Of a stretch of DNA of 64,000 nt, positions 15,655 to 42,506 are shown piece after piece. Made by a program: the position numbers and the translations under genes. The DNA is taken from the NCBI GenBank assembly GCA_011526565.1, contig WYBL01000116.1, forward strand, positions 3,019-67,018, given 5' to 3'. Origin of the DNA: Acidobacteriota bacterium. Its GTDB lineage: Bacteria; Acidobacteriota; Vicinamibacteria; Fen-336. The notes under the pieces are model-generated. The model did no database searches, had not been told where the DNA came from, and was given only the letters and a program-made list of their open reading frames with translations. Every line of letters starts with the position of its first letter. Position 1 is the first letter of the stretch.

Positions 15655-18600
15655 TCAGCTCGTCACCGTCCGCAGCCGCTCGCACAGCACGCGGATCACG
15701 CCCCGCACGACCTCGATGCGGTCGGCCATCAGCTCGTACAGCGCCTCCTGCTCGAGCCGGAACAGGTGGGTGGCGCCGATCGCCAGCACCGACGCCGAGC
15801 GCGGCTCCGGGTCCAGCGCGGCCATCTCGCCGAAGATCTCGCGCGGGCCCAGCTCGCGCAGCACGCGGCCCTCGTTGACGACCCGCACCCCGCCTTCGAC
15901 GACGATGTAGAGCGCCGACCCCATGTCGCCCTTCTCGAACACGATGCCGCCGGGGCCGACGTCGACCTCCTCGAGCCGCGAGGCCACCTCGGCCAGGATC
16001 TCGTCGGGCGTCTCGCGGAAGATCGACACGCTCTTCAGGATGATCACCTTCTCGACCGTGGTCAGCATCGACGTCCCTCCCGACAGCTCCGCCTCGTAGC
16101 GCGCGATCAACCGCTCGGCCTCGTCGAGCGCGAGGCCGGTGGCCGGCTGGCGCCGCCGCGGCAGCCGGGTCAGCACCTCGCGCACGATCGTCTCGTCGGC
16201 TGGCACGCGGGGCGCCAGCGCCAGCAGCCCCGGCAGGTCCGCCTCGACCGCAGCCTGCAAGGCGCAGGCGCGCAGCCAGGGCGCCGTCGCCTCGTCCGTC
16301 ACCAGTCGCTCGAGCCGCGCGGCGAAGCCCAGGAGTTGATGCGGGAAGGTCGCGCCCAACTTGCGCAGTCGCTCGGCATGCGCCACGTCCTCGAGCAGCG
16401 GCACCACCAGCTTGCCGACGTCGGGGGTCACAAGGCTGTCGACCAGTTCCACCGCCTGGGCCCGCTTCTCCGGCCGGCGGCTCGACAGGTTGACGCGGGC
16501 GCGCAGCACCGGGTCGGGCGGGTAGACGAAACCGAGCAGGCAGAAGACCCGCTCGCGAGCCCTGCCGAACGCGTGGTCCAGCGTGCTCGCGAGCAGCGCG
16601 CCCCGGGCCTCCGCGCGCACGTCCTCGAGCATCGCCAGCACCACCACCGCGTCGCGCACCTCGCGGGCGATCCGTTCCTTCACCTGCGGCACGGCAGCCG
16701 GCGCCGCCTCGAAGCCTGTCGTCGCCAGCGAGGACAGCAGCGACAGTCGCACCTCGGGATCGTCGTGGTCGGCGCACAGCCACAGGAACTCGCGGGCGCG
16801 GGCCCCGCCGATCTGCCCGATCAGGCGCGCGACCCGGCGCTGCGCCGAGCGCCGCCGCTGCTCGTCGGCGGCGTGGAAGGCCTGCTCGAGGTCCGGGAGC
16901 ACGGCGGGGCCCGAGGCGACCAGCGCCGCCATCGCCGCGGAACGGTGGGCGGGCAGGTCGAGGCTGCGCAACAGCAGCGGCAGCAGCCGCGGGTTGCGGA
17001 GCCGACCCGCGGCCCACAACGCGGCGCGCCGCACGGCCGGCTCGCGGTCGGCGAGCAACGCGATCAGCGGCCGGTAGAAGCTGGCCTGGCCGACCTCGCC
17101 GATCACCCGGGCCGCCTCCTCGCGGGCGACCGGTTCTTCGGCGCGGGCCATCGTCACCAGCCGCTCGCCGGCGGCCAGCACGCCTTCGATGCCGCCGTGG
17201 CGCAGCAGCGCCACCAGCGCTCCGCACCGGGCCTCCACCTCGGGGGCGTCGAGCGAGAGCATCACCCGCTCGACGTCCTCGGGTTCGCCGATCGCAGCCA
17301 GCGCCCGCAACGCCGCGCCGCGCGCCGCCGCATCCTCCTCCGCCACCGCCGCCAGCCGCACGGCCCCGAGCGCCGCGCGCAGGCCCAGCCGTTCCACACG
17401 CAGCGAGGCATCGCGGCGCACCGCGGGGTCCTGGTGGCCGAGTTGAGCGACCACGGCGCTCTCCAGCGACGGGTGGCCCAGTTCCTCGAGCACGCCGAGG
17501 CAGTAGGCGACCTCCTCGGGGCGCGGCGAGTGCAGCCCCTTCTGCAGCACGGCCAGGCTGGAGGCGTCGAGCGCCAGCGAGACCCCCTGCAGGTGGCGGC
17601 TCTCCAGCGCGCGGCGCAGCTTCTCGGTGTAGGCGCCGCGGAGCGTGGCGGCGACGACGACCCAGCCGAGCACCAGCAGTCCGAGCAGCGCGCACAGCTC
17701 GACGGCGCCGAAGCCGAGGCCGCCGACCAGGGCCAGCAACGCAATGCCGGCGACGCCGCCGGCCAGCGGGCCGACGATGCCTTCCACCGCGGTCTGCGCC
17801 CGCACCCGGGCCGCGCCGGGCAGCGGCTGGTAGAGCAGCAGCACCGCGCTGCGGTCGATCGAGTCGCGCAGCGACTGGTCGACCAGCTTGGTCAGCGCCA
17901 GCAGCGCGAAGAGCAGGGCCGTCGGAGCCGCCAGCGCACCCGCGCCGACGACGCCGAGGCAGCCGAGCCCGATCGCCGCCGGCATGAACTGCAGCGCCCC
18001 GAGCCCGAAGCGGGCCAGCGCCCGACCCGCCAGCGCTCGAGCCAGCAGGGTGATGGCCGCGACGCTGCCGTTGAACACGCCGATGAACGCGGTCAGGTCG
18101 CGCTCGGCGGGGTAGCGCGCCGCAGCCAGCGCGTAGAAGGCGTTGTCGAGGAAGTAGTAGGCGACGTACGACAGCGCCACGAGGGCGAACAGCAGCCGCA
18201 GGTAGCCGCTGCGCAGCCCGCCGCCGGAGCGGGCGGCGTGGGAGCGGTCCTCCTCGCCGCCGGCCGCCTCGAGCAGCGGGAAGCGCCGCGTCACCACTCG
18301 CAGCAGGGCCAGGCACCCGACCACGGCGGCGGCCGAGACCCACAGCAGGTCGGCGGTGCCGAAGCGCGCCACGAACAGCGGCACCAGCAGGCCCGTGAGC
18401 GCCCCGGCGGCGAGCTCTCCGGCGCCGATCGGCCCGAACAGCCGCTTGCCCTGGCGCACGTTGAGCAGCGAGCCCGAGAGCCCCCAGAACTCGAGCGTCA
18501 GCAGCACGCCCTCGACCTCGGCCCACACCGGCAGGACCAGCGCGACGGGCACGACGTGTCCCATGCCCAGCGCGCCGCGCAGCGTCAGCAGCGTGACCAG

Positions 18601-18879
18601 CACGACCAGCAGGTCGACGGCCAGCAGCGTGCGCAGGCCGACGCGCGCGGACAGGCGCAGGCGCAGGAAGCCGGTGACCGGGATCGCGATCGCCGCCGCG
18701 ATGTAGACCCAGGGCAGGTGGCGGGCGTCGCTGTGCGACAGGAACAGCGCCATGCCCGCGGTGCTGGTCAGGTTGCGCGGCACGCCGATGCAGAAGGAGT
18801 GGAGCATCAGCAGCCAGACGAGGCGCTCCTCCTCCGGGCGCACGTCCAGCATCGTGGCGATCGCCCTGCGCAGCCCCAT
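15655..18879 (-). CDS. Large multidomain protein: an N-terminal ATP/ADP-translocase-like (TLC/Npt) multi-TM transporter domain, central HEAT/PBS-lyase-type repeats, and a C-terminal cyclic-nucleotide-binding domain
   Basis: About 12 predicted TM helices lie in the first 430 aa. A helical repeat region carries recurring DPAVRRDA, REPAVRRAAL and DDPEVRLS motifs (HEAT/PBS-lyase-like). The C-terminus (VEKVIILKSVSIFRETPDEILAEVASRLEEVDVGPGGIVFEKGDMGSALYIVVEGGV...REIFGEMAAL...RSASVLA) is a cNMP-binding fold. Confidence 0.75.
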   Translation of the reverse strand: MGLRRAIATMLDVRPEEERLVWLLMLHSFCIGVPRNLTSTAGMALFLSHSDARHLPWVYIAAAIAIPVTGFLRLRLSARVGLRTLLAVDLLVVLVTLLTLRGALGMGHVVPVALVLPVWAEVEGVLLTLEFWGLSGSLLNVRQGKRLFGPIGAGELAAGALTGLLVPLFVARFGTADLLWVSAAAVVGCLALLRVVTRRFPLLEAAGGEEDRSHAARSGGGLRSGYLRLLFALVALSYVAYYFLDNAFYALAAARYPAERDLTAFIGVFNGSVAAITLLARALAGRALARFGLGALQFMPAAIGLGCLGVVGAGALAAPTALLFALLALTKLVDQSLRDSIDRSAVLLLYQPLPGAARVRAQTAVEGIVGPLAGGVAGIALLALVGGLGFGAVELCALLGLLVLGWVVVAATLRGAYTEKLRRALESRHLQGVSLALDASSLAVLQKGLHSPRPEEVAYCLGVLEELGHPSLESAVVAQLGHQDPAVRRDASLRVERLGLRAALGAVRLAAVAEEDAAARGAALRALAAIGEPEDVERVMLSLDAPEVEARCGALVALLRHGGIEGVLAAGERLVTMARAEEPVAREEAARVIGEVGQASFYRPLIALLADREPAVRRAALWAAGRLRNPRLLPLLLRSLDLPAHRSAAMAALVASGPAVLPDLEQAFHAADEQRRRSAQRRVARLIGQIGGARAREFLWLCADHDDPEVRLSLLSSLATTGFEAAPAAVPQVKERIAREVRDAVVVLAMLEDVRAEARGALLASTLDHAFGRARERVFCLLGFVYPPDPVLRARVNLSSRRPEKRAQAVELVDSLVTPDVGKLVVPLLEDVAHAERLRKLGATFPHQLLGFAARLERLVTDEATAPWLRACALQAAVEADLPGLLALAPRVPADETIVREVLTRLPRRRQPATGLALDEAERLIARYEAELSGGTSMLTTVEKVIILKSVSIFRETPDEILAEVASRLEEVDVGPGGIVFEKGDMGSALYIVVEGGVRVVNEGRVLRELGPREIFGEMAALDPEPRSASVLAIGATHLFRLEQEALYELMADRIEVVRGVIRVLCERLRTVTS

Positions 18880-18921
18880 GGGAACCCGCGAACGATAACC
18901 GATCGCGGCCCGGCCCCTGCG

Positions 18922-19383
18922 CTACCTCGGGCGGTAGCGCTCGATCCGCCCCCGGCAGCGCGGGCTCCCGCAGCGACAGGCGAAGCTCCAGCGCGGGTCC
19001 CAGAAGTAGTGCTCGGGGAAGCGGGCGAAGAGACGGGCGTCGGCCCACTCGTAGTCGATCGTCAGCTCGGTCCCGGCGGCCACGTCGCGCAGGGTGGCGA
19101 GGTCGCGGTCGGAGCGGATCTCGGCATTGGGCTCGCAGCCGTGGTTGACGTAACGGGCGAGCGTCAGCGGCACCGTCCACTCGAACGGCGCGAAGGAGTT
19201 GACGTAGACGATCTCCGCCTCCGGCACCTCGGTCCACGGCAGGTCGGGCCCGAGGAAACGGGTGAAGACCGTGCCGGCCGGCAGGCCGACCCGCGCGAAG
19301 ATCCCGGTGTGGCCCGCCGTCACCTCCCGCGCCTCCACGAAGCTCGCCTCGAGGGCCCGGGTGGCCGCGATGGCCGCCTTCAC
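18922..19383 (-). CDS. SET-domain protein (putative protein-lysine methyltransferase)
   Basis: The SET core and post-SET Cys cluster read ...YVNHGCEPNAEI...ELTIDYEW...CRCGSPRCRGRI. The GTG start at 19383 overlaps the stop of the upstream decarboxylase gene by 4 nt (GTGA). Confidence 0.7.
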   Translation of the reverse strand: MKAAIAATRALEASFVEAREVTAGHTGIFARVGLPAGTVFTRFLGPDLPWTEVPEAEIVYVNSFAPFEWTVPLTLARYVNHGCEPNAEIRSDRDLATLRDVAAGTELTIDYEWADARLFARFPEHYFWDPRWSFACRCGSPRCRGRIERYRPR

Positions 19384-20573
19384 AACGCGATCTCGCGCAC
19401 CGGGCCACGCAGGCAGTGGTCGGAGGCCATCGAGGATCCGTAGGCGCCGGCGGGCAGCAACGCCAGCAGGTCGCCCTCCTCGATCGCCGGCAGCGGCAGG
19501 TCGCGGGCGAAGATGTCGTTCGATTCGTTGATGTTGCCCGCGACCGAGACCGGCCCGGCGACCGGCGCCAGCGGGCGGTCGACGTGGGCGATCTCGACCG
19601 GCAGTCCGTAGTGGGCGGCGTACAGGTTGACGTTGTGGCCGGCGTCGACGCCGATCCACACCGTGCCCGACTTCTCCTCGACCGTGTTGACCTCCACGAC
19701 GAGCACCCCCGCCGCGTCGACCAGCAGCGTGCCCGGCTCGCAGGCGACCGTCACGCCCAGCGGCCCGAGGTGGCGCGCGGCGGCCTCCGCCCACTCCTCC
19801 GCCATCACCGGGTCGTCCACGGCGCGGCGGCGGGCGCCGAGGCCGCCGCCCAGGTTCACGGAACGGACGTCCGGCAGCCGCCGCGCGAAGCCCGCGAGCT
19901 TCTCCATCACCCACTCGAGCTTGTGCAGCGCGCCGCGCTGGATGCCCCAGCCGCAGTGCACGTGCAACCGGTCGACGACGAGGCCCGCGGCGCCGGCGGC
20001 CTCCACCGCCGCGTCGAAGGCGTCGTGGGCGAAGCCGAACTTGGTGTTGCCGTAGGCCAGCTTGGGGTGGCTGCCGTAGCCGATGTCGACGGCGCAGTCG
20101 AGCCGCAGGCCGATCGCCGTGCCGCGCGGCACGCGGCGCCCCCAGCGGCGGATCGCCGACAGCGAGTCGAGGTTGAGGCCCGCGCCCTCCGCGGCGAAGA
20201 AGTCGAGGTCGCGGTCGCTCAGCATCGAGGCGGTGACCGAGATCTCGTCGGCCGCGAAGCCCGTCTCGCGCGCGAGCGCGAACTCGCGCGGGGAGCAGGC
20301 GTCGATGCCGACGTCGCCGCAGCCGCGGATCGTCGCGAGCACCGGCCGGAAGCGGTTGGCCTTCATCGCGTAGTAGAGCCGGAACGGCAGGCCGCGCGAG
20401 GCGAAGGCCGCGCGCAACTCGTCGACGCGGCGGCGCACCTTGGCCAGGCTGTAGACGTAGAGCGGGGTGCCGTGCTCGGCCGCCAGCTCGCGCAGCGATC
20501 GGCCGTCGAAGCTGAGGCCCGCGGCTTCGGCGCGCAGGCCGTTGCCGGCCCACCAGGCGGGGATCGTGCTCAC
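19380..20573 (-). CDS. PLP-dependent decarboxylase of the Orn/DAP/Arg family (fold type III; LysA/NspC-like)
   Basis: It has the YYAMKAN PLP-lysine motif, ...HVHCGWG..., ACEPGT and ...AGAYGSSMAS.... I chose the start at GTG 20573 (VSTIPAWW...); the listed 476-aa ORF carries an Arg/Pro-rich junk N-terminal extension. Confidence 0.72.
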   Translation of the reverse strand: MSTIPAWWAGNGLRAEAAGLSFDGRSLRELAAEHGTPLYVYSLAKVRRRVDELRAAFASRGLPFRLYYAMKANRFRPVLATIRGCGDVGIDACSPREFALARETGFAADEISVTASMLSDRDLDFFAAEGAGLNLDSLSAIRRWGRRVPRGTAIGLRLDCAVDIGYGSHPKLAYGNTKFGFAHDAFDAAVEAAGAAGLVVDRLHVHCGWGIQRGALHKLEWVMEKLAGFARRLPDVRSVNLGGGLGARRRAVDDPVMAEEWAEAAARHLGPLGVTVACEPGTLLVDAAGVLVVEVNTVEEKSGTVWIGVDAGHNVNLYAAHYGLPVEIAHVDRPLAPVAGPVSVAGNINESNDIFARDLPLPAIEEGDLLALLPAGAYGSSMASDHCLRGPVREIAL

Positions 20574-20637
20574 GTTCGGGCTCGCGCAGAGTATAGGCGC
20601 GGCCCGGGCACGCGCCGGGCCGCGGCCGTGACCCCGC

Positions 20638-24525
<3,888 letters not shown>

Positions 24526-24535
24526 CCCGACGAGC

Positions 24536-26185: not shown

Positions 26186-26279
26186 CGTGCCCCCACGAGG
26201 AGCGTCGATCCTACTAGAATCCGCGCTCCGCGCTTGGGGACGGAGGCGAAGGACCTTGGATCACGGACGGCGGACGTCG

Positions 26280-26675: not shown

Positions 26676-26688
26676 TCCCCGACGCGCC

Positions 26689-26707
26689 GCGTCAGCGCTT
26701 CTGACGC
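26689..26707 (+). terminator. Hairpin after the FKBP gene (7-bp stem, 5-nt loop, no U-tract); weak terminator candidate
   Basis: GCGTCAG-cgctt-CTGACGC lies 14 nt after the stop at 26675. Confidence 0.2.
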
Positions 26708-26749
26708 ACCGCGCGTGCTCGTGATGCCCTATCCTTCGCGGACCCCGCG

Positions 26750-28609
26750 ATGGACGAGAATCCCCACGCCTCCCGCCACCAGACCGAACTGCTGCTGCAC
26801 GGGCTGCGCGCCCTGTTCGGCGAGGTCGACGAGACGTTCCTCGCCGAACTGCGCCCGCGCCTCGACTGGATCGAGCTGGCCGGCGGCGAGACGCTGTTCC
26901 GCCAGGGCGAGCGCGCCGACGACATCTACTTCGTGATCAGCGGGCGCCTGCGCGCCCACGTCGCGGACGAAGAGGGCGAGCGCGTGCTCGGCGAGATCAT
27001 GCGCGGCGAGACGATCGGCGAGATGGCGATCTTCACCGGCGAGCCGCGCTCGGCGTCGATCACCGCCGTGCGCGACAGCGTGCTCGTCAGGCTGTCGCGT
27101 CCCGCGTTCGAGGCGTTGCTCGGCTCCCACCCGCTGTTGTCGATCAACGTGACGCGGCTGATCATCGACCGCCTGAAGCGCTCCAGCCACCCGCGCAACG
27201 CGGCGCGGCGCCCGGTCAACCTGTGCCTGCTGCCGATCACGCCTGGCGCCGACGGCGAGGAACTCGGCCGCGCGCTGGTCGGGCGGCTGGGGCGCTACGG
27301 CCGCGCCGTGCTGCTGACCAGCGCCGGCGTCAACGCCCAGCACGGGCCGGACGTCGCGCAGGCCGACAAGTCGCGGCCCGACGACTACCGCCGGCTGACC
27401 CGCTGGCTCGACGAGGTCGAGGCCCAGCACGACTTCCTGGTCTTCGTCGCCGACCGCGAGGCCAGCGAGTGGTCGCGCCGCTCGCTGCGCCACTCGGACG
27501 AGGTGCTGCTGCTGTGCGAGGCGGGTGCGGAGCCCGCCGTGCACCCGATGGAGCGCGACTTCCTGGAGGGCCCGGGCCGGGTCGGCGGCGCGAGCCAGAC
27601 GCTGGTGCTGCTCCACCCGCCGGGCACCACCTTCCCGCGCGGCACGAAGCGCTGGCTGGACCGCCGGCCCGTCGCCCGCCACTTCCACGTGCGCCCCCAC
27701 CTCGAGCGCGACGTCGCGCGGCTCGGCCGCATCCTCTCGGGCCACGCGATCGGCCTCGTCTTCAGCGGCGGCGGCGCCCGCGGCTTCGCGCATCTCGGCG
27801 TGCTGCGCGCGCTGGAGGAGCACGGCGTCGCGATCGACTACGTCGGCGGCACCAGCATCGGCGGGGTGATGGCCGCGCTGTGCGGCTTCGACCAGCCGGC
27901 GATGCAGGCGATCCACAACGCCCGCCGCGCCTTCAAGGCCGACCCCACGAGCGACTACAACATCGTGCCGATGATCTCGTTCATCCGCGGCCGCAAGCTG
28001 AAGCGGATCATCGAGCAGGCGGTCGAGGAGGCGGTCGGTTCGCCGTGCGACCTCGAGGACTGCTGGAAGACGGTGTTCTGCATCGCCACCAACTTCTCGC
28101 GCTCGACGGAGATGGTGCTGACCCGCGGCGACCTGGCGCGCCAGGTGCGGGCCTCGGTCTCGATCCCCGCCGCGCTGCCGCCGGTGATCCACGACGGCGA
28201 CCTGCTGGTCGACGGCGGCTGCTTCAACAACTTCCCCACCGACGTGATGGGCCGGCTCGGGGTCGGCAGGGTGATCGGAGTCGACCTGATCAAGGACGTG
28301 CGGCGGCGCCAGGAGATCGACGAGGTGCCCGGCAACTGGGACCTGCTGCGCGACAAGCTGCGCGGCCGCCGCCGCCGTTACCGGCTGCCGTCGCTGACCG
28401 CCGTGCTGCTGATGTCGACGATCCTGTACTCCAACTCGCGCCGCAAGCAGACGAAGCAGTACACCGACCTCTACTTCAACCCGGAGATGGGGCGGGTCGG
28501 CCTGCTCGAGTGGGGCCGCTTCGAGTCGATCGTCGAGCTCGGCTACCTCCACGCGAAGGAGGTGCTCGGCCGCATGACCGACGCGGAGCTCGCCCCCTAC
28601 CGCGACTGA
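26750..28609 (+). CDS. Cyclic-nucleotide-binding domain fused to a patatin-like phospholipase (NTE/RssA-like lysophospholipase)
   Basis: The N-terminal cNMP fold reads ...GERADDIYFVISGRLRA...GEIMRGETIGEMAIFTGEPRSASITA.... The patatin oxyanion/nucleophile motifs are GLVFSGGGARGFAHLGVL and GGTSIGG, and the catalytic Asp context is DGDLLVDGG. Confidence 0.8.
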   Translation: MDENPHASRHQTELLLHGLRALFGEVDETFLAELRPRLDWIELAGGETLFRQGERADDIYFVISGRLRAHVADEEGERVLGEIMRGETIGEMAIFTGEPRSASITAVRDSVLVRLSRPAFEALLGSHPLLSINVTRLIIDRLKRSSHPRNAARRPVNLCLLPITPGADGEELGRALVGRLGRYGRAVLLTSAGVNAQHGPDVAQADKSRPDDYRRLTRWLDEVEAQHDFLVFVADREASEWSRRSLRHSDEVLLLCEAGAEPAVHPMERDFLEGPGRVGGASQTLVLLHPPGTTFPRGTKRWLDRRPVARHFHVRPHLERDVARLGRILSGHAIGLVFSGGGARGFAHLGVLRALEEHGVAIDYVGGTSIGGVMAALCGFDQPAMQAIHNARRAFKADPTSDYNIVPMISFIRGRKLKRIIEQAVEEAVGSPCDLEDCWKTVFCIATNFSRSTEMVLTRGDLARQVRASVSIPAALPPVIHDGDLLVDGGCFNNFPTDVMGRLGVGRVIGVDLIKDVRRRQEIDEVPGNWDLLRDKLRGRRRRYRLPSLTAVLLMSTILYSNSRRKQTKQYTDLYFNPEMGRVGLLEWGRFESIVELGYLHAKEVLGRMTDAELAPYRD

Positions 28610-28616
28610 AGGCCGC

Positions 28617-29153
28617 TCACAGGTCGTCCTTCAGGAACGCCTCGCGGGCCGTGACCTTGGTCTCGACCAGGTCGGCGTTCGAGAGCCCGATCGCCAGCGC
28701 CACCTTGCGCACGAAGTACTCCTCGTGGCCCGCGAGCTCGGCGTCGGCATAGGCCAGGCGCCACAGGTTGAGCACGATCTCGCGGCGCTGCGGCATGTCG
28801 GCGTTGGCGCGGATCGCGTTGAGCAGCTCCGGCAGCGGCGTGCGTCCGACCTTGTCCTCGGCGACCCGCACCAGCATCAGCGCGGCGTCCCCGCGCAGGC
28901 CGAGGGCGCGCTCGAGGGCCGCCATCAGGGCCAGGTGCTCGTCCGTCTTCAGCTCGTGGTCGGCGCGGGCCACCTGCAGGAACAGCACGGCGGTGGCGAG
29001 CTGGACCGCCTCCGGGGAGAGGTCGACGGGCGGTGCCCCGACGAGGGCGCTGGCGAACGCCTGGCGCGCGGCCGCGCGCCGCCCCTCGAAGACGTCGGTG
29101 ATCGCGGCGAGCAGGGCGCCCTCCAGCTCGTCCGGCACCAGGTGGTCGAGCAT
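28617..29153 (-). CDS. TerB-family (tellurite-resistance TerB / DjlA N-domain-like) protein
   Basis: A helical acidic protein whose motifs match the TerB fold: ...AVLFLQVARADHELKTDEHLALMAALERALGL...EIVLNLWRLAYADAELAGHEEYFVRKVALAIGL. Confidence 0.55.
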   Translation of the reverse strand: MLDHLVPDELEGALLAAITDVFEGRRAAARQAFASALVGAPPVDLSPEAVQLATAVLFLQVARADHELKTDEHLALMAALERALGLRGDAALMLVRVAEDKVGRTPLPELLNAIRANADMPQRREIVLNLWRLAYADAELAGHEEYFVRKVALAIGLSNADLVETKVTAREAFLKDDL

Positions 29154-29204
29154 GTCCGCCTCCCCGACCGCGACCCTACGAAGTCTGCGCCCCCCGCGTC
29201 AACC

Positions 29205-29578
29205 TCAGATCCGCTCGGGGTCGCGCACCGTGCGCGCCTCGACGACCTCGCCCGTGTTGACGACGCCGCGGCGCTCGAACAGCAACACGTGGCACTCGGC
29301 GTCGGCGACCGGCCGGTGCTCGACGCCGCGCGGCACGACCAGCAGTTGCGAGGGCCCCAGCTCGGCGACGCCGTCGCGGAACTCGATGCGCAGGCGGCCG
29401 GAGAGGACCAGGAACAGCTCGTCTTCGGCCTCGTGGCGGTGCCACACGAACTCCCCGTGCAGCTTCGCCAGCTTGACGTCGTAGCCGTCGACCTCGGCGA
29501 TCCGCTTCGGGGTCCAGGTCTCGGAGAACGAGGCGAGCTTGGCGCCGAGGTCGACGACGGGCGGGACCCCGTTCAACC
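29205..29578 (-). CDS. Cupin-domain protein
   Basis: The cupin motifs ...HRHEAEDELFLVLSG... and ...VVPRGVEHRP... are present. The start is uncertain (TTG 29578 chosen); it overlaps the end of the DinB-family gene. Confidence 0.5.
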
Positions 29579-30073
29579 GCGCGACTCGCGCCAGGCGGCG
29601 ACGTTGCGCTCGATCTGCCGCGCGTGGTTCTCCACGTGGGCGGCGTAGGAGCGCAGCCAGTCGCACGCCGAGTACGGGCCCGACTCGGTGTGGCGGCCCG
29701 CGCGCGCCCACGCCGCGTCCGGCAGTCTTCGGGCGAGGGCCGCCGTGTGCGCGCGCACGGCGTCGACCACCGCGAGGGCGACCTCCGCCGGGTGCGCGTG
29801 GTAGTCGTGCTCGCGGGCCCACGCCTCCTGGTCGTAGCCGACGATCAGCGGCTCCTTCTCCGTGACCAGATACCGCAGGCGCAGCGCCGCGTTGGCCTCG
29901 GAGTCGGCGCAGTGCACGACCACCTCGTGGGCCGACCACGTGCCGGGCCCCGGCCGCCATTGGCGGGCCTCGGCGGGCACCACCTCCCAGGCCGCGCGCA
30001 GCCGCGCCGGCCCCTTCTCGTACTGGCGCAGCAGGGGCTCGCGTTCGGCCGCAGTCAGGACACCCGTGCTCAT
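29573..30073 (-). CDS. DinB/YfiT-family (DinB_2) metal-dependent protein
   Basis: A four-helix-bundle DinB_2 signature with His residues: ...WSAHEVVVHCADSEANAALRLRY...HDYHAHPAEV...AAHVENHARQ. Confidence 0.65.
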   Translation of the reverse strand: MSTGVLTAAEREPLLRQYEKGPARLRAAWEVVPAEARQWRPGPGTWSAHEVVVHCADSEANAALRLRYLVTEKEPLIVGYDQEAWAREHDYHAHPAEVALAVVDAVRAHTAALARRLPDAAWARAGRHTESGPYSACDWLRSYAAHVENHARQIERNVAAWRESRG

Positions 30074-30105
30074 CGAACTCCTCCGGCTCGCCCCCGGGGA
30101 ATCGT

Positions 30106-31149
30106 TCAGCGCTTCTTCGGCGCCTCGACGATGCGCAGCAGGTCGGAGAGCAGCGCATACGCGGTCTGGTCGACCCCGCCGCGGCCCTCGACGATCGCCA
30201 CCTCGCGCATCAGGTCGGTCTCCAGCACCAGCACGCCGTCGACGTCGTCGAGCGCCAGCGGGTCGCCGGCCGGTACCGCTTCCGGCCCGACCGAGATGCG
30301 GACGCGGCCGGCCTCGCGGCGGGCGCGGGCGACCAGCCGCAGCCGCTCGCCGCGGGCGCGGGCCTCGCGGGCCTCGCGCTCCACGCCCGGCCCGATCCCG
30401 GCCCGCACGACGTCCGCGGGCTCCACGTCGGCGTCGAGCAGCGCGTTGGCCAGCGCGCAGGCCTTGACGGCGGCGTCCCAGCCGTCGACGTCGAGCGAGG
30501 GGTCGGCCTCGGCCACGCCCAGCTTCTGCGCGTCGGCCAGCGCCTCCTCGTAGCTGAGGCCGCGCGAGGCGTCGGAGAGGATGCGGGTGGTCGTCGAGTT
30601 GAGCAGGCCACGGAAGCCGTTGACCTTCGCGCCGCGCAGGCAGGTCTCGACCAGGTTGAAGATCGGGGCGCCGTCCATCACCACGCCCTCGTGCAGGAAG
30701 TGCACTTTCTTCGACCGGGCCAGCGCCATCAGCTTCTTGCGGGCGAACGCGACCGGGCCCTTGTTGGCCGTGATCACGTGGAGGCCGCGGCCCAGCGCCG
30801 CGCGGATGTGGGCCGTGGCCGGCTCTCCGCCACGCACGTCGAGCGTGGAGATCTCGATCACCACGTCGGCGGGCACCGACTTCACGAACTCGAGCGCCGA
30901 AGCCGGCGCCTTGCGCCCGCGGTGCAGCGGCTCGAGCGAGCGCCCGGCCTTGACCAGGTGCAGGGCCTTGCCGAGCGGCAGCCCCTTCGGGTCGATCGCG
31001 GTCCCGTGGCGACGGGTGGCGATGCCCGTGATCGTGACCGCCACCCCCGCGGCCTTCAACTCCTTGCCGTAGCGACCGGCGAGCTGCTCCGCGAAGTAGC
31101 GACCGACGTTGCCGAACCCGACCAGGGCCAGACGCAGCGGACGTGCCAT
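30106..31149 (-). CDS. hom: Homoserine dehydrogenase
   Basis: The NAD-binding motif LALVGFGNVGRYF is followed by the catalytic domain (...LHVITANKGPVA...FLHEGVVMDGAPIFNL...). Confidence 0.85.
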   Translation of the reverse strand: MARPLRLALVGFGNVGRYFAEQLAGRYGKELKAAGVAVTITGIATRRHGTAIDPKGLPLGKALHLVKAGRSLEPLHRGRKAPASALEFVKSVPADVVIEISTLDVRGGEPATAHIRAALGRGLHVITANKGPVAFARKKLMALARSKKVHFLHEGVVMDGAPIFNLVETCLRGAKVNGFRGLLNSTTTRILSDASRGLSYEEALADAQKLGVAEADPSLDVDGWDAAVKACALANALLDADVEPADVVRAGIGPGVEREAREARARGERLRLVARARREAGRVRISVGPEAVPAGDPLALDDVDGVLVLETDLMREVAIVEGRGGVDQTAYALLSDLLRIVEAPKKR

Positions 31150-31306
31150 AACGAGGCGGGATTGTAACCGCGGCGGCGTCTTTTTGCCCCCGGGCGGTTG
31201 CCGGGCCGGGAGCGGTCGGCTACTTTAGGGGGGTCCGTGCTCTCGCGGACCCGATGTGCGGGTGGCTTTCGCGCAGATCCTGCGGGAAGTCGCCCTAGGA
31301 GTGTGC

Positions 31307-32200
31307 ATGACGTCATTGCCGTTCCGGCGCCCGAGCGCCGCGCTCCTCCTGCTCCTGCTGACCTCGTGCGGCGGGGGCGGTTCTTCTCCGGCCGCACCCA
31401 GCACTCCTCCGACGGGCAACACCACTCCGACCCCCACGCCGGCGCCGACCGCGACGCCGACTCCCACCCCGGGCGGCGGCACCGCGGCCGCGAGCTGCAC
31501 CGCCCTCGGCTACGGCGTCTGGGACGCCCCCTGCTCGCGCAGCGGCGGTCAGTTCACGGAAGTCGTGATGTCCGCCATCAACCAGCTCCAGCGGGAGAAG
31601 CCGGGCCTGTTCGACACCACGCAGTTCGCGGGGGGCAACCCCGAGCAGTGGCGGGTGCTCGACGCGTCCGCCTACTACCAGGGCGTGATGGAGGTCCTCG
31701 GCCGCAACGGCTACTGCGCGAACCTGCTGGCCACCACGATCTCGGTCAAGACCTCCAACTCCTTCTCGGAGGACTTCGACGTGATGCTCAGCTCGGGCCA
31801 CGTCCGGCGAGGCGAGGCGGCCTACCGCAACACCTGCCAGCCCGCCAACTTCCCCGCCAACCCGGTCGAGATGATCAACCGCGTCCGGGTCGGCTTCTTC
31901 GAGATCCGCTGCCCCGACGGGCGCACGCCGCCCCGCAACGGCGAGAACACGCTGCCGATCGGCTGCCTCGGCACCGTCACGGCGACGCCCAAGGACAGGG
32001 ACGACCACGACGTGCCGGCCTCCGTCCACGGCCCCGACATCGAGTGGGAGCTGCTCCAGGACGGCTTCATCGCCGACATCGGCGACGACCCGGTCAGCAA
32101 GTTCAACATGTTCGTCTCGGCCCACAACCCCGGAAGCTTCGAGCTGTGCGCCACCGTGCAGACGATCCGCGGCTGCATGAGGGGCACGGTCATCGAGTAG
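31307..32200 (+). CDS. Secreted lipoprotein with a Thr/Pro-rich linker and a Cys-containing domain; hypothetical
   Basis: The lipobox is LLLLLTSCGGGG. The linker PTGNTTPTPTPAPTATPTPTPGG is followed by a roughly 230-aa domain with 8 Cys. Confidence 0.55.
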   Translation: MTSLPFRRPSAALLLLLLTSCGGGGSSPAAPSTPPTGNTTPTPTPAPTATPTPTPGGGTAAASCTALGYGVWDAPCSRSGGQFTEVVMSAINQLQREKPGLFDTTQFAGGNPEQWRVLDASAYYQGVMEVLGRNGYCANLLATTISVKTSNSFSEDFDVMLSSGHVRRGEAAYRNTCQPANFPANPVEMINRVRVGFFEIRCPDGRTPPRNGENTLPIGCLGTVTATPKDRDDHDVPASVHGPDIEWELLQDGFIADIGDDPVSKFNMFVSAHNPGSFELCATVQTIRGCMRGTVIE

Positions 32201-32209
32201 GAGGAGATC

Positions 32210-33325
32210 ATGGTTCTCGGCCTGTTCGGGGGAACCGACGTCGGGGACCTGATCGCGAAGAAGAAGTACGCGCGGGCCATCGAGGTCCTCGGCGAGCAGC
32301 TTCGCCGGGGCACCTCGGACCCGCGCGTCCGCAACCAGCTCGCGGACGTGCTGATCATGGCCGGCCGCGAGAAGGAAGCGGTGCCGGTGCTGATCGAGCT
32401 GGCGGACGAGTACGCCCGCGTCAACCAGGCCCCGCGCGCGATCGCGCTGCTCAAGAAGATCGAGCGCATCGACCCCGGCCGTCGCGACGTCGACCAGAAG
32501 CTGGCCTCGCTGATCCGCGACAAGAAGCCGAAGGCCAAGGCCCCGGCGGGCGGCGGCTGGCAGCCCTACGAGGAAGGCGGCCTGAGCACCGGCGGCTCGG
32601 TGTTCGACGCCTCCCACTTCGAGCCCTCGCCGTACACGGGCCAGGAGTCGGTCGCCGCGGCGAAGAAGGCGTCGTGGGAACCCGACATCGGGACCCGGAA
32701 GGAGGAGGCGCCCGGCGCGCCTGCGCCCCCCGACTTCCCTGCGATCCAGCTCCCGCCCGAGCCCGACGAGCCGCCGATGTTCTCGCAGGAGATGTTCCGC
32801 GGCCAGGTGCTCGACGTGATCCAGCAGGTGCTGCAGTCGCCTGCCGTGCCACCCCCGGCGCCACTCGCGACCGCGCCGGCCGTGACGGCCGAAGGCGAAG
32901 AGCCGCTGATCGAGGTCGAGCCGGAGCCGGAACTCGTGACGAGCCCGCTGTTCGGCGACATGTCGGAGGACGAGCTGATCGCGTTCATGCGCGGCCTGCG
33001 GCTGCTGAGCTTCGAGCCCGGCGACGTGATCCTGACCGAGGGCCACCCGGGCGACTCGCTGTTCGTGGTCTCGAGCGGCCTGGTCAAGGCCTTCGTCAAG
33101 GACCAGGGAGCCACCGGCCAGCGCCTCGCCCGCACGATGAAGGACGGCGACTTCTTCGGCGAGATCTCGATCCTGTCGGGCAAGCCGCGCACCGCGACGG
33201 TCACCGCGGCGACCCGCGTCGAGCTGCTGGAGATGGACCGCCCGACGCTCGACGAGATGCTGAAGCAGTACCCGCGCATCATGCAGGTCCTGCAGGACTT
33301 CTACGTCGCCCGCGCGACGGCCTGA
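32210..33325 (+). CDS. Helical (TPR-like) N-terminal module plus C-terminal cyclic-nucleotide-binding domain protein
   Basis: The N-terminal module is paralogous to both modules of the 34752..37451 protein. The cNMP fold reads ...FEPGDVILTEGHPGDSLFVVSSGLVKAF...GDFFGEISILSGKPRTATVTA.... A GGAG RBS lies about 8 nt upstream. Confidence 0.72.
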   Translation: MVLGLFGGTDVGDLIAKKKYARAIEVLGEQLRRGTSDPRVRNQLADVLIMAGREKEAVPVLIELADEYARVNQAPRAIALLKKIERIDPGRRDVDQKLASLIRDKKPKAKAPAGGGWQPYEEGGLSTGGSVFDASHFEPSPYTGQESVAAAKKASWEPDIGTRKEEAPGAPAPPDFPAIQLPPEPDEPPMFSQEMFRGQVLDVIQQVLQSPAVPPPAPLATAPAVTAEGEEPLIEVEPEPELVTSPLFGDMSEDELIAFMRGLRLLSFEPGDVILTEGHPGDSLFVVSSGLVKAFVKDQGATGQRLARTMKDGDFFGEISILSGKPRTATVTAATRVELLEMDRPTLDEMLKQYPRIMQVLQDFYVARATA

Positions 33326-33363
33326 AGCGGGGCCTCTCGCGAGGCGAATCGAAGGGGACTGCC

Positions 33364-34158
33364 ATGATCCGGGATACGCTCCGCCGTCTCCGGCGACGCT
33401 TCGGCCGTGATCAGGAGCGCGAGGCGGAGAACATGGCTCGCGCCTACGTCGCCGAGCACCCGCGACTCGCTGAAGTCCTGGCCCACGCGGATCGGGTGTC
33501 GGGTTCGACCGGCGTCCAGCTCGCGGACTCGGTGTTCCTCCACAAGGCCGTGCTGCGGCTGCGCCCGACCACGGTCCTCGAATGCGGCACCGGGCGGTCG
33601 ACCTTCGTACTGGCTCAGGCCATGGCCGAAGCGGCGCAGCCGGGGACCCGTCCGCGCCTGGTGTCGATGGAACACGACCGGGCGTGGTTCGAGGCGGCGC
33701 TTCGTGCGTTCCCGAAGGACGAGTTCCCGTTCGTCGAGATCGTCCACTCGCCCCAGGCGCTCCACGGGTACTCGTTCGTTCGCGGCACGGTGTACAGCAG
33801 CGTGCCGACGGCGCCCTATGACCTGGTCTTCGTCGACGGCCCGGGGCAAGAAATGAGCAGCGTGCATCCGCACACGATGTGCAATCTCGATTTCATCCGC
33901 CTCGTGGAGCAATCCGACAGGCCCGTGCGGGCGATCATCGACAACCGAAAGCACACGGTGCTCGCATACACGGTGATCCTTGGCCGCGCCAAGGTGCGCT
34001 TCTTCCCCGGCGGCCGAGGGCAGGGGAGCCTCGGCATCGTGGCACCGGTAACCCGCAAGGACCTCCTGCTGGCGGACAAGATGGCCATGCGCAAGACGCT
34101 GTTTCCGGAGTTCGTGCGCATCGGAGGCGACACGCCGCTGGCCTTCCTGGAAGGCTGA
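33364..34158 (+). CDS. Putative class I SAM-dependent methyltransferase-like protein; hypothetical
   Basis: A glycine-rich motif VLECGTGRSTFVLAQA and a following acidic-loop pattern (...YDLVFVDGPG...) resemble the CmcI/TylF-type Rossmann methyltransferase fold. I could not assign a family with confidence. Confidence 0.45.
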   Translation: MIRDTLRRLRRRFGRDQEREAENMARAYVAEHPRLAEVLAHADRVSGSTGVQLADSVFLHKAVLRLRPTTVLECGTGRSTFVLAQAMAEAAQPGTRPRLVSMEHDRAWFEAALRAFPKDEFPFVEIVHSPQALHGYSFVRGTVYSSVPTAPYDLVFVDGPGQEMSSVHPHTMCNLDFIRLVEQSDRPVRAIIDNRKHTVLAYTVILGRAKVRFFPGGRGQGSLGIVAPVTRKDLLLADKMAMRKTLFPEFVRIGGDTPLAFLEG

Positions 34159-34203
34159 CGTTCGTCAGGAAGCTGGGGCCTCGACCGGCGCCCGGCGGCG
34201 TGG

Positions 34204-34755
34204 TCAGCGCGCGGGCGGGGACGGGGGCGCGGGGCAGGCGGACACCCCGCGCTCCGCGCGGCGGGCCTCCAGCGCCTGCCCGATGCGGGCGAGCTGCTCC
34301 GCGCCCAGGTGCCGCTGCAACGTCTCGTAGAAGGCGCGCTCCTCGTAGCGGACGTGGTCGTCGAGCAGCGGGCCGAGTTCGGCGCACACCGGCCGGAGGT
34401 CGTCGCCGCGAACGAGCGCCGTGGCGAGCGACGCGGCCAGGGCCTCCATCTCGCGGTGCTCGTCCGCGATCCGCCGCACGCCCTCGGGGTCGAAGCCGCG
34501 CGCCGCGGGCAGCAGCTCCTGCTCCTCGTCGGCGAAGTGGCCGCGCATCTCCGCCTCCCAGGTCGCGAGGAACGCGCGGGCCGCGGCGACGACGGCCGGG
34601 TCGCCCGCGGGCCGCTGCGCGGCGCGCTTGAGGTCGAGGGCGCGGACCAGCACGCCATGGTGCTCGCGGGAGAGGGCGACGAGGGCGGGATCGCGGCGCA
34701 GGCCGCGGGTGCCGGGAGCCAGCGCGGGCACGACCCGCGGCGGGCGTTCGCTCAC
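34204..34755 (-). CDS. Hemerythrin-like (HHE cation-binding) domain protein
   Basis: It has repeated His-containing helices (...LSREHHGVLVR..., ...HFADEEQELLP..., ...DEHREMEAL..., ...DDHVRYEERAFY...). The GTG start overlaps the stop of the upstream cNMP protein (GTGA). Confidence 0.6.
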   Translation of the reverse strand: MSERPPRVVPALAPGTRGLRRDPALVALSREHHGVLVRALDLKRAAQRPAGDPAVVAAARAFLATWEAEMRGHFADEEQELLPAARGFDPEGVRRIADEHREMEALAASLATALVRGDDLRPVCAELGPLLDDHVRYEERAFYETLQRHLGAEQLARIGQALEARRAERGVSACPAPPSPPAR

Positions 34756-37451
34756 GCCGGGGGCTGGCCGCGCAGCTGCGCAGCCTCGGCGCTCTGCGCG
34801 CGCTCGCGGGCGAACGCTTCCAGCACCTCGCGCATGCGCGGGTGGCTCGCGGTACACGCCTCGAGCGCCTCGCGGGTCAGCTCCAGCAGCTCGCCCCGGG
34901 TCGAGGCGATCACGGTCGCGCGCCGCGGGCCACCCGAGAGCGCGGCCATCTCGCCGAAGAAGGCGCCGTCGCGCAGCACCGCCAGGCGCGCGTCGTGGCC
35001 GCGCGGGGTGCGCACGAACACCTTGACCACGCCGGTGGCGAGGATGAACAGGCTGCCGCCGGGCTCGCCTTCGCTGATCAGGATCTCGCCCGGCTCGATC
35101 GGCACCAGCCGGAGCTGCTGGACGAGCGCCAGCAGCTCTTCTTCGGTGAAGCCCTCGAACAGCGGGCTGCCGCGCAGGCCGCTGTCGTAGGAGCGGGCGG
35201 CCGCCGGCGCCGCCTGCGCGCCCAGCGTCGGCGTGCGCTGCACCTGGTCGCGCACGACGTCGACGAGCCAGTCGGCGAAGCTCGCCTCGGTGCGCGGGCC
35301 GCGCGCGGGCGCGGGGGCGACGGGTGGCGGCGGGGCGGGCACGGGCGGGGCCGGCTCGGCGGCGGCGGTCGCCCGCGGCCGCTTGAGCGGCGCGAGGTTG
35401 ACCTCCTCGACGTAGCGCCGCTGCAGTCCCTCGATCTTCTTGAGGATCGCGATCGCCTTCTCGGGGAACCCGCCGCGCACGAGCTCGTCGGCGAGGCCCA
35501 CCAGCACCGCGACCGCGTCCTCCTCCTTGCCCGCTCGCAGCAGCGCGTCGGCCAGCCGCAACTGCATCTTGGGGTCCCACTGGCTGGCGCCGAAGTGGGC
35601 GAGCAGCACCTCGGTGGCACGCCGCCGGGTGTTCTCCGCGTCGAGCGCGACCGCGCGCACCGCGGCGTTGGCGGGCGAACTGGCGCGCGCGATGTAGGCC
35701 GCCTCCAGCCGGTCGCGCACCCGCGGGTGCACGGCGGCCATCGCGTCGAGCGTGGGCTTCGACAGCTCGAGGCACTCGACCCAGTCGGCGGCGACGACGG
35801 TCGCGGAACGCGGGCGGCCGGAGAGCGCGGAGACCTCGCCGAACCAGTCGCCCTCGAGGAGGCGCGCGACCTCGACGTTGCGGCCGACCGGGTTGCGCAC
35901 GTAGACCCGCAGCTCGCCGGTCGTGAGCAGGAACAGGCTGTTGCCCGGCGCGCCCTCGCTGACCAGCACGTCGCCCGGGTCCCACGTGCGCAGCGTCAGG
36001 CCTTCGACGACGGCCATCAGCTCGTCCTGCTTGAGGTCGCCGAACAGGGGCGTGGCCAGCAGGCGCCGGCTCATCTCCAGGTAGTGGCGAGCGTCGACAC
36101 GAACGGGGTGCGCCTCTTCGTCGAGCGCGTCGATCTCGGGCTCGACGGGTTTCGCGACCGGTTCGCCGGGCCGCTTCAGCACGTCCTGGACGAGGTCGAG
36201 GAGCTGGTCGTGGAACTCCGCCTCGTCGAGGCCCTCCGAGCCCTCGGGCTCGGGCAGCAGCTCGATCAGCGACTCGGGAGGCGCTTCGTCTTCGGCCTCC
36301 GGCTCCACTTCCGGGGAGGGCTCGACTTCTGCCGCCACCGGCGCCGCGGCGTCCACCGGTTGCGCTTGCTCCACCTGCAGCGCCGGCGCCGCGGGCTCGG
36401 GCGCTGCCGCGGCAATCGGCTCAGGCTCCACCGTGGGCTCGGCGGCAGGCTCGGTCTCGGGCTCGGTCTCGGGCTCGGTGTCGACCTCGGGCTCGGCTTC
36501 CGGCTCCGGCTCGATGCGCGGCTCCTCATCGCCCTCGCGGCTCAGGAACCCGCGCAGCGCGCCCTTGAAGCGATCGACGCCGGACTCCTCGGCGTCGGGG
36601 CTCGCGGCTTCGGGCGCGGGCGCGTCCGCGGCGGCCAGCGCGGGCTCGGGTGCTTCGGCCGGGACCGGCTCGGGTGCGGAGGGCGCCGCGGGCTCCGCGG
36701 GCTTCTCGTCGTCGACGAGCGACGACAGGAAGCGGCGGAACACGGAGCGCAGGCGACCGCCCGCGGGCTTCGCCGGCTCGGCCGGCGCCTCCGGCTCCGG
36801 CACCGGCTCGGCCTCGGGTTCGGGCTCAGGCACGGGCTCGGCCTCGGGTTCCTCGGCCCGAGCTTCGGCGGCCTGCTGCGCGGGCGACGGCGGGACCTCG
36901 GCCGCGGCTGGCGCAGGTGGCGTGGGCACCGGAACCGCGGCCGCCTCGTCGGGCGGCAGCGGCCCGCCGATCTCGGGCGGCAGCGCCGTGAAGTCGGGCA
37001 CTGCCATCCGCGACAGCGTCTCGTCGCCGGGCGCCTCGCCGATCTCCTCGATCCCGAACAGGGGCGCCGGGGCGGGTCGCGGCGTCGGGGTCGGCGTCGA
37101 GCTGCCCGCAGCCGACTGGCGCGCCTGCTCCTCGACCAGCGCGGCCATCCGCTCCGCGACGTCGGCGCGCCCCGGGTCGACCTTCTCGACGCGCTTGAGG
37201 ATCGCGATCGCCTTGGCGACGAAGCCGTCGCGGCGCAGCTCGTCGACCAGCGCCAGCAGGATCGGGCATGCCTCGTTCGGGCGGCCCGCCTGGATCAGCA
37301 GGTCCGCGAGCTGGAGGCGCACCTTCTCCGAGGGCGCCTTGCCCTCGAGCTGCTCGCGCAGCGTCTCGATCGCCTTCGCCCGCCGCTTGCGGGCGAGGAT
37401 CTCGGAGACGTTCGACTCGATCGGCGAGTTGAGCCAGTCGATCGGCGGCAT
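34752..37451 (-). CDS. Tandem-duplicated protein: (helical TPR-like module, cNMP-binding domain) x2, with a roughly 340-aa Pro/Glu/Ala-rich low-complexity linker
   Basis: Module 1 (MPPIDWLNSPIESNVSEILARKRRAKAIETLREQ...) is followed by an acidic PEPEAEPVPEPE... low-complexity region, then cNMP domain 1 (...WDPGDVLVSEGAPGNSLFLLTTGELRVY...GDWFGEVSALSGRPRSATVVA...). Module 2 (TRRRATEVLLAHFGASQWDPKMQLRLADALLRAG...) is followed by cNMP domain 2 (...IEPGEILISEGEPGGSLFILATGVVKVF...GAFFGEMAALSGGPRRATVIA...). Confidence 0.72.
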   Translation of the reverse strand: MPPIDWLNSPIESNVSEILARKRRAKAIETLREQLEGKAPSEKVRLQLADLLIQAGRPNEACPILLALVDELRRDGFVAKAIAILKRVEKVDPGRADVAERMAALVEEQARQSAAGSSTPTPTPRPAPAPLFGIEEIGEAPGDETLSRMAVPDFTALPPEIGGPLPPDEAAAVPVPTPPAPAAAEVPPSPAQQAAEARAEEPEAEPVPEPEPEAEPVPEPEAPAEPAKPAGGRLRSVFRRFLSSLVDDEKPAEPAAPSAPEPVPAEAPEPALAAADAPAPEAASPDAEESGVDRFKGALRGFLSREGDEEPRIEPEPEAEPEVDTEPETEPETEPAAEPTVEPEPIAAAAPEPAAPALQVEQAQPVDAAAPVAAEVEPSPEVEPEAEDEAPPESLIELLPEPEGSEGLDEAEFHDQLLDLVQDVLKRPGEPVAKPVEPEIDALDEEAHPVRVDARHYLEMSRRLLATPLFGDLKQDELMAVVEGLTLRTWDPGDVLVSEGAPGNSLFLLTTGELRVYVRNPVGRNVEVARLLEGDWFGEVSALSGRPRSATVVAADWVECLELSKPTLDAMAAVHPRVRDRLEAAYIARASSPANAAVRAVALDAENTRRRATEVLLAHFGASQWDPKMQLRLADALLRAGKEEDAVAVLVGLADELVRGGFPEKAIAILKKIEGLQRRYVEEVNLAPLKRPRATAAAEPAPPVPAPPPPVAPAPARGPRTEASFADWLVDVVRDQVQRTPTLGAQAAPAAARSYDSGLRGSPLFEGFTEEELLALVQQLRLVPIEPGEILISEGEPGGSLFILATGVVKVFVRTPRGHDARLAVLRDGAFFGEMAALSGGPRRATVIASTRGELLELTREALEACTASHPRMREVLEAFARERAQSAEAAQLRGQPPA

Positions 37452-37603
37452 CGTGGTAACCCGTTGAAGGTGAGCGGCCGAGGCGAGGCTATGCGCCACG
37501 CGGCCGGGGGTCAACCGGCCAAACTTGACTTTTTAGTCCAGATTGCCGATTCTTGGGTCTGCGCCCTCCCCGAGCGCGGCATCGGAAGGACTTCCCGCCC
37601 GCC

Positions 37604-39043
<1,440 letters not shown>

Positions 39044-39065
39044 CGGCAACAGGAATCGAAGAGAG

Positions 39066-39832
<767 letters not shown>

Positions 39833-39836
<4 letters not shown>

Positions 39837-41257: not shown

Positions 41258-42506
<1,249 letters not shown>

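Follow-up and report, generated by a model that had tools for sequence, protein, structure and literature searches.

TPR-CNB proteins of an Acidobacteriota family, encoded beside a suf operon, as candidate cyclic-nucleotide-controlled docking adaptors

We analyzed a 64,000-nucleotide stretch of DNA (here called the window) from an Acidobacteriota bacterium of the class Vicinamibacteria (assembly GCA_011526565.1, contig WYBL01000116.1, positions 3,019 to 67,018 of the forward strand). Two of its genes encode proteins, C and D, that join a helical tetratricopeptide repeat (TPR) module to a cyclic-nucleotide-binding (CNB) domain, once in C and twice in D. We found that C and D belong to a large, lineage-expanded TPR-CNB family, seen so far only in Acidobacteriota. 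For their function we lean toward protein-docking adaptors or scaffolds controlled by a cyclic nucleoside monophosphate (cNMP) rather than transcription factors or enzymes. An earlier model-made reading of the same DNA (the first-pass annotation) had counted four CNB proteins with five CNB domains within about 22 kb, and this count agrees with Pfam and with a six-frame hidden Markov model (HMM) scan, which found exactly five CNB domains and three TPR modules over the 64 kb. Because the window is 72% G+C, raw lists of open reading frames (ORFs) are full of spurious frames; we called genes from third-position G+C, and the resulting boundaries were matched by independent metagenome gene calls on identical DNA. 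Throughout, TC denotes a single TPR-CNB unit and TCTC the doubled form, and labels such as L001 or L010 denote stretches from related genomes or contigs. The four CNB proteins, encoded at 15.6-37.5 kb, are as follows.

32210-33325, plus strand: protein C, 371 amino acids; TPR module at 32210-32524 and CNB domain at 32930-33319, separated by a disordered, acidic linker that bears conserved motifs
34752-37451, minus strand: protein D (TCTC), 899 amino acids; TPR1 at 37128-37442, CNB1 at 35670-36065, TPR2 at 35379-35663, CNB2 at 34785-35180
15655-18879, minus strand: protein A, 1074 amino acids; membrane region, HEAT repeats, C-terminal CNB domain (DNA 15661-16041)
26750-28609, plus strand: protein B, 619 amino acids; CNB domain, NTE P-loop-like domain, patatin domain

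The first-pass annotation had proposed, from three quoted peptides, that three units of helical module plus CNB domain are related in sequence. These peptides map to 32339-32491 (plus strand), 37158-37310 (minus strand), and 35424-35555 (minus strand), which lie in the module of C and in the first (D1) and second (D2) modules of D. By BLAST, the C module matched D1 at 44% identity (E 1e-23, 93 bits) and D2 at 44% identity (E 4e-12, 58 bits), and D1 matched D2 at 42% identity (E 8e-12, 56 bits), while 100 composition-preserving shuffles gave a mean of 11 bits and a maximum of 26 bits. The relationship holds, as the modules align significantly; the CNB cassettes, described below, are intact as well, so neither of the refuting outcomes named by that annotation occurred.

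The same annotation had described the module as an uncharacterized, receiver-like module dedicated to cNMP effectors. We rejected a new receiver-like fold because Pfam TPR families match above their cut-offs, the module is predicted to be all-helical, and structural matches are to TPR proteins. Protein C matches TPR_19 with 33.4 bits (5.7e-08; cut-off 25) and TPR_14 with 26.5 bits (8.2e-06; cut-off 23.5) alongside cNMP_binding (1.3e-21), and protein D matches cNMP_binding in two stretches (1.4e-44) together with the same TPR families and TPR_20, the scores for D1 being 28.9 bits (TPR_20), 26.7 bits (TPR_19), and 25.6 bits (TPR_14), all above cut-off. The D2 module is not called by Pfam and scores 102 bits on the family HMM. 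AlphaFold2 models of the modules have five to six helices and nothing else, at a predicted local distance difference test (pLDDT) score of 86-92, and predict a fold of stacked antiparallel helix pairs, as in TPR domains; in the full-length model of C, residues 10-105 reach a pLDDT of ~92. The best Foldseek matches are all TPR proteins, albeit weak ones (E 3.5e-3, TM-score ~0.4) with loose superpositions, and a profile search for the TPR part found no relative by sequence in the PDB. Pfam gave no Response_reg match to the module, whose predicted all-helical structure contrasts with the alpha/beta receiver fold. TPR modules are normally protein-docking surfaces, and for this module a docking or output role is more plausible than that of a receiver. 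What survives of the earlier description is the dedication to CNB domains: the close subfamily, at 100-147 bits per copy, is found only fused to them.

This restriction emerged from a profile of the module (A2), built from the three window copies and ten homologues and searched against 1.84 billion 50%-identity representatives. At E≤1e-3 it matched 8,763 proteins; the stricter threshold of E≤1e-10 left 2,155 50%-identity clusters. Among the best 149 matches were 43 TCTC proteins, 35 TC proteins, 15 TCT fragments, 25 short proteins with the TPR part only, and ~28 giant TPR arrays without a CNB domain. Scores per unit were 100-147 bits in the true family versus 5-30 bits in the giant generic arrays. 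As generic TPR arrays are also matched, if weakly, the fold class is ordinary TPR, and it is the specific subfamily that is seen only with CNB domains. Candidates for a module with other partners or none were set aside: the giant proteins (1.2-3.6 thousand residues) are generic TPR arrays at 5-30 bits per unit, the short matches, in which no families other than TPR appear, resemble fragments or truncated genes, and the protein at L089, considered as a CNB-less module, proved to be an ordinary TC protein.

Full-length homologues of C with its architecture (~340-400 amino acids) number at least 935; those that bear a name appear as 'hypothetical', 'TPR repeat protein', or 'cyclic nucleotide-binding domain-containing protein'. 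NCBIfam holds no curated model for the TPR-CNB family, and literature searches on it (TPR plus cNMP, Acidobacteria) returned nothing relevant. A scan of one genome per species gave 427 relatives, and the best 78 of these loci are all from Acidobacteriota, mostly Vicinamibacteria with some Thermoanaerobaculia and Holophagae; several TC or TCTC paralogues per genome are common among these 78. The closest genome in the scan is a Vicinamibacteria metagenome-assembled genome (MAG) whose C-type protein is 86% identical. The TPR-CNB family appears to be one of the main soluble cyclic-nucleotide receptor types of Acidobacteriota. In a Thermoanaerobaculia MAG, three TC genes stand in tandem on the same strand (L041, 518-5236).

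All five CNB domains of the window are well supported, with PF00027 scores of 64.8-85.6 bits per domain and 150.4 bits for the pair in D (cut-off 27.5). Aligned to E. coli CRP, their phosphate-binding cassettes are intact: FGEMAALDPEPRSASV in A, IGEMAIFTGEPRSASI in B, FGEISILSGKPRTATV in C, FGEVSALSGRPRSATV in D1, and FGEMAALSGGPRRATV in D2. Each keeps Gly-Glu and Arg-(Ser/Thr)-Ala, except that D2 reads Arg-Arg-Ala, an Arg replacing the Ser/Thr. Across 24 aligned C homologues (alignment A1), FGE and the cassette Arg are invariant, and the family cassette is near-invariant as FFGEISILSGKPRTATVTA. The retained Glu and Arg are the residues that contact the cyclic phosphate. The nearest solved structures by profile search are the CNB domains of PKG and PKA-R (E 3e-34 to 1e-29). 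The four CNB proteins of the window are predicted to bind cAMP or cGMP. The Thr that follows the cassette Arg in C-type proteins is also found in PKG, yet is not diagnostic of which of the two nucleotides is bound.

Beyond the TPR and CNB parts, we found no helix-turn-helix or enzymatic domain in C or D with Pfam or NCBIfam. Both chains end ~10-25 residues past the C-helix of the CNB domain, and the NCBIfam CRP-type matches cover the CNB part only, at 36-58 bits versus cut-offs of at least 266. We therefore rejected a transcription-factor reading, as no helix-turn-helix family was matched. Lacking a DNA-binding or enzymatic output, the proteins would have to reach their targets by protein docking.

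The two proteins differ in how the TPR and CNB parts are joined. In C, whose TPR part is conserved across the 24 homologues, the linker is rich in Pro, Glu, and Ala, acidic (net charge -15), and predicted to be disordered; AlphaFold2 leaves residues 108-245 disordered. The C-type linker motif EERIAAAR.ASWVPST is conserved, its Trp and Pro (ASWxP) being invariant, and the conserved amphipathic helix of C is FRGQVLDVIQQVL. The same alignment has a short amphipathic helix, QILDVIQ.AL, that recurs ahead of each CNB domain of D. In D, the first linker is longer (340 amino acids) and again rich in Pro, Glu, and Ala, with a net charge of -64, and the second linker, between TPR2 and CNB2, is short. 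The C-helix of CNB1 runs linker-free into TPR2, and among 25 TCTC homologues this junction is one of the most conserved stretches of D. The conserved amphipathic helices of D are FHDQLLDLVQDVL and FADWLVDVVRDQV. The halves of D are internal duplicates (E 3e-34 for the CNB halves, 8e-12 for the TPR halves), and the duplication is old: other TCTC proteins carry separate orthologues of the D1 module and of the D2 module, at 61-70% identity. Amid the acidic sequence of the D linker, residues ~230-245 and ~290-305 form short basic amphipathic segments, RLRSVFRRFLSSL and VDRFKGALRGFLS, which are moderately conserved among TCTC homologues and could be docking or membrane-binding motifs.

Directly upstream of C lies a further gene whose position is conserved.

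31307-32200, plus strand: predicted lipoprotein gene, 297 amino acids; signal sequence LLLLTSC

It ends 9 nt upstream of C and is probably co-transcribed with it. The lipoprotein has no Pfam or NCBIfam match. In L007, L010, L012, and L014, too, the C-type gene is immediately preceded by a lipoprotein gene, and the arrangement is kept down to 39-40% identity.

We propose that, in C and D, cAMP or cGMP would bind the phosphate-binding cassette and displace the C-terminal hinge and lid helices, and that this movement would alter the binding or the reach of the TPR surface. The target of that surface may be a partner protein or, within the same chain, one of the conserved amphipathic helices of the linker. 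At the rigid CNB1-TPR2 junction of D, the lid helix of CNB1 passes directly into TPR2.

Parts of this scheme have counterparts in known systems. PKA-R and PKG provide the closest solved CNB domains, with the same cassette residues, and PKA-R resembles D in carrying tandem CNB domains in one chain and in acting through protein-protein contacts rather than DNA binding. Unlike these proteins, C and D are bacterial, lack a kinase, an inhibitor sequence, and a docking/dimerization domain, and instead have TPR modules and a long acidic linker. In the CRP/FNR proteins the C-helix of the CNB domain leads to the output domain, and the C-helix of CNB1 in D leads to TPR2 at the same topological position; C and D differ in having no helix-turn-helix, their output being TPR. 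A cNMP-switched contact between a TPR and a CNB domain has a precedent in TRIP8b and HCN channels, in which the interaction of a TPR protein with a CNB domain is antagonized by cAMP (PMC7478871). The likeness is one of analogy only: TRIP8b and HCN are two eukaryotic proteins with no sequence relationship to C and D, in which both parts lie in one bacterial polypeptide.

Several observations weigh against cNMP-controlled docking. At least 130 disordered residues separate the TPR and CNB parts in TC proteins, and it is not obvious how the two could be coupled by direct allostery. The full-length model of C has a predicted TM-score (pTM) of 0.33 and is thus uninformative on contacts between the domains. 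With ~2.5 hairpins and a capping helix in 100 amino acids, the module has fewer repeats than classical peptide-binding TPR domains. CNB folds can also bind a different ligand or no ligand at all (the CRP/FNR superfamily, for example, has members that sense heme or 2-oxoglutarate), and no cyclase lies nearby to back a cNMP circuit. As the first-pass annotation had stated, none of the called genes of the window matched a Pfam cyclase family, nor did extra ORFs at 57-58.6 kb, several ORFs at 47-62 kb being without any Pfam match; no cyclase was found in the annotated flanks of the relatives either. The last two points would fit CNB domains that sense some other small molecule or are purely structural, making the proteins TPR scaffolds unresponsive to cNMPs. 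We consider this very unlikely, given that Gly-Glu and Arg-(Ser/Thr)-Ala are kept in the window cassettes, that FGE and the cassette Arg do not vary among the 24 homologues, and that the closest solved relatives are the bona fide cNMP-binding domains of PKG and PKA-R.

Is the presence of four CNB genes within 22 kb meaningful in itself? By domain content, A and B are typical representatives of CNB effector classes that were already catalogued, and they are unrelated to C and D. Protein A matches HEAT_2 (7.8e-19) and cNMP_binding (7.4e-18); its membrane region is polytopic and probably of the TLC/Npt type, with a TLC match (15.6 bits, 0.0074) below the cut-off of 21. It is 100% identical to an NCBI protein from a Vicinamibacteria MAG, and its full-length homologues (34-82% identity) combine PF03219, HEAT, and PF00027 under the names Npt1/Npt2 nucleotide transporter or ATP:ADP antiporter; one such homologue is present in Sorangium. 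The closest known counterparts of A are the Npt1/Npt2 (TLC)-HEAT-CNB proteins, from which it differs in its sub-threshold TLC score, and literature searches on NTT-HEAT-cNMP proteins gave nothing relevant. Protein B matches cNMP_binding (2.3e-24), NTE_Ploop (4.1e-20), and Patatin (4.4e-29) in that order, which is the three-domain order of bacterial CNB-patatin phospholipases of the neuropathy target esterase (NTE) type, and we noted no difference from these.

Across 1.2 Mb of sequence flanking related TC genes, CNB genes from outside the family occur at ~1.1 per 100 kb, a density at which two of them in a 64-kb window are unremarkable (Poisson p ~0.16). Their placement is not uniform: 7-8 of ~12 lie within 1 kb of a TC gene, for which a binomial estimate against uniform placement, ignoring shared ancestry, gives p ~5e-5. 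The CNB effectors found within 1 kb include CNB-GGDEF proteins (L026, L034, L088), CNB-MshEN-PilT-like ATPase-PDZ proteins (L022, L066), and A-type transporter-HEAT-CNB proteins (L048, L052). Clustering of CNB effectors around the TC family is therefore recurrent in the phylum.

These data bear on another explanation, in which the four genes lie close together for no functional reason: C and D would have arisen by local duplication, and A and B would be nearby by coincidence in a CNB-rich genome. It would account for the 13 kb between A and C, for the unremarkable count of two non-family genes, and for the position of B, which is shared by L001-L004 and L012 (near-identical contigs and the 86% relative only). 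In the relative whose C is 90% identical (L010), B is absent and its place is taken by another gene set that includes an unrelated CNB-ferredoxin protein. It accounts less well for the concentration of non-family CNB genes within 1 kb of TC genes, for the A-type genes that are immediate neighbors of TC paralogues in L048 and L052 and stand 4.7 kb away in L021, and for the C-D pair, which persists in relatives with a C protein of 90%, 86%, 54%, and 49% identity. We regard coincidence throughout as possible, if doubtful. In the docking-adaptor reading that we favor, A and B would themselves lie nearby by chance, their lineage being one in which genes for CNB effectors often cluster. The local enrichment claimed by the first-pass annotation thus stands in part: clustering near TC genes recurs, while C, D1, and D2 reflect duplication, the number of genes such as A and B is unremarkable, and the position of B is not conserved. 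The block at the B position in L010 (933-2459) comprises the CNB-4Fe-4S ferredoxin protein, multiheme cytochromes, and a triple-FHA protein.

A second conserved association, absent from the first-pass annotation, is that D lies divergent from, and back-to-back with, a suf operon.

37486-37514, minus strand: putative D promoter; TTGACC, 17-nt spacer, TAGCCT
37525-37553, plus strand: putative sufB promoter; TTGACT, 17-nt spacer, GATTCT
37604-43990, plus strand: suf operon; sufB, sufC, sufD, sufS, NifU_N/SufU-like, FeS_assembly_P, Rrf2 regulator (Pfam)
34204-34755, minus strand: hemerythrin-like (HHE) gene, 183 amino acids

TCTC genes or D1-like TC genes adjoin sufB in L007, L010, L012, L014, L028, L029, L031, L033, L035, L038, L039, L042, L059, and L061, either divergently or co-directionally just upstream, and in L090 an aconitase gene stands between suf and the TCTC gene. 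Among informative TCTC genome loci, five of six have the TCTC gene within 5 kb of sufB; the TCTC genes of L087 and L092 are not near suf. At the L090 locus, a LAGLIDADG-containing intein interrupts SufB (1299-3818), and an Fe-superoxide dismutase gene lies nearby.

D and sufB each appear to have their own putative sigma-70-like promoter, as judged from hexamers and their conservation. Both hexamer regions of the D promoter are conserved upstream of TCTC genes in L007, L010, L012, L014, L059, and L061, and the sufB promoter-like element, whose second hexamer is GATTCT-like, is conserved in nine loci (the window, L007, L010, L012, L014, L033, L035, L059, and L061). The latter overlaps a conserved palindrome, GACTTTTTAGTC (GACTnnnnAGTC), at 37527-37538, which is a plausible candidate operator for the Rrf2 regulator whose gene closes the operon (43538-43990).

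At its other end, D meets the hemerythrin-like gene, and here the translational coupling reported by the first-pass annotation was borne out: the GTG start of the hemerythrin-like gene overlaps the TGA stop of D by 4 nt, as GTGA; independent gene calls show this overlap too, as does the 90%-identical relative. The product matches PF01814 with 53.4 bits (4.7e-14; cut-off 25.3), and the motifs HH, HFADEE, DEH, and HVRYEE, candidate metal ligands, are readable in its translation. The hint of a link to O2, NO, or iron sensing that the annotation drew from this overlap is weak, as only the two closest relatives (at least 86% identity) have the gene, which is absent at 49-54% identity. The conserved D-suf adjacency is a stronger, still circumstantial, hint of iron or redox involvement.

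One could go further and postulate that TCTC proteins are cNMP-dependent docking or regulatory factors for SUF iron-sulfur cluster assembly or repair under iron or oxidative stress, acting here also with the hemerythrin-like protein. The adjacency to sufB at 14 loci (with L090 in addition), the proximity at five of six TCTC loci, and the overlap of the hemerythrin-like gene with the D stop codon would all fit, as would the persistence of the adjacency despite changes in orientation (divergent or co-directional) and architecture (TC or TCTC). We nonetheless consider such a role unlikely. Within a single bacterial class, neighboring genes may have kept an inherited order that has no function; D and sufB each have a putative promoter of their own, at variable spacing; the TCTC genes of L087 and L092 lie away from suf; the hemerythrin-like gene is missing from the relatives at 49-54% identity; and the operon has an Rrf2 regulator of its own. 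If true, the role would constitute a direct protein-level link from cAMP or cGMP signaling to iron-sulfur cluster biogenesis, which we have not seen described. On a broader, likewise unlikely view, TC proteins might serve as common adaptors for the diverse CNB effectors whose genes adjoin theirs.

The TPR fold, the CNB domain, and protein types A and B were known before; what is new is a large TPR-CNB family on which we found no literature, together with its association with suf and with CNB effectors. Acidobacteriota are abundant soil bacteria whose signaling is almost unexplored, and the identity of the TPR partner would reveal what cAMP or cGMP controls in them. The repeated adjacency to suf and to CNB effectors (GGDEF, PilT-like ATPase, nucleotide transporter, and lipase proteins) supplies concrete candidates. 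If the clustering were inherited gene order only, the finding would reduce to an ordinary domain combination already catalogued by automated annotation.

Elsewhere in the window, we searched for RNA families with Rfam and found none. The window also encodes two GAF-domain signaling proteins, a GAF-HisKA-HATPase protein (1705-3195, plus strand) and a GAF-SpoIIE/PP2C phosphatase (8178-9422, minus strand); some GAF domains bind cyclic nucleotides. ORFs at 47757-52929 and 57001-62416 have a weaker third-position G+C bias and no Pfam match, and this run is flanked by genes for a Ser/Thr kinase (44462-46894), an ECF-type sigma factor (47037-47582), a MacB/FtsX permease, and an AAA ATPase. Finally, an 87-bp tandem repeat (22326-22598, 3.1 copies, 98% identity) lies in frame within a long ORF (20638-24525, minus strand) that combines a DUF255/thioredoxin part with an aldo-keto-reductase part. 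The repeat coincides with a drop in third-position G+C, so this ORF may represent two separate genes whose intergenic repeat is read through.

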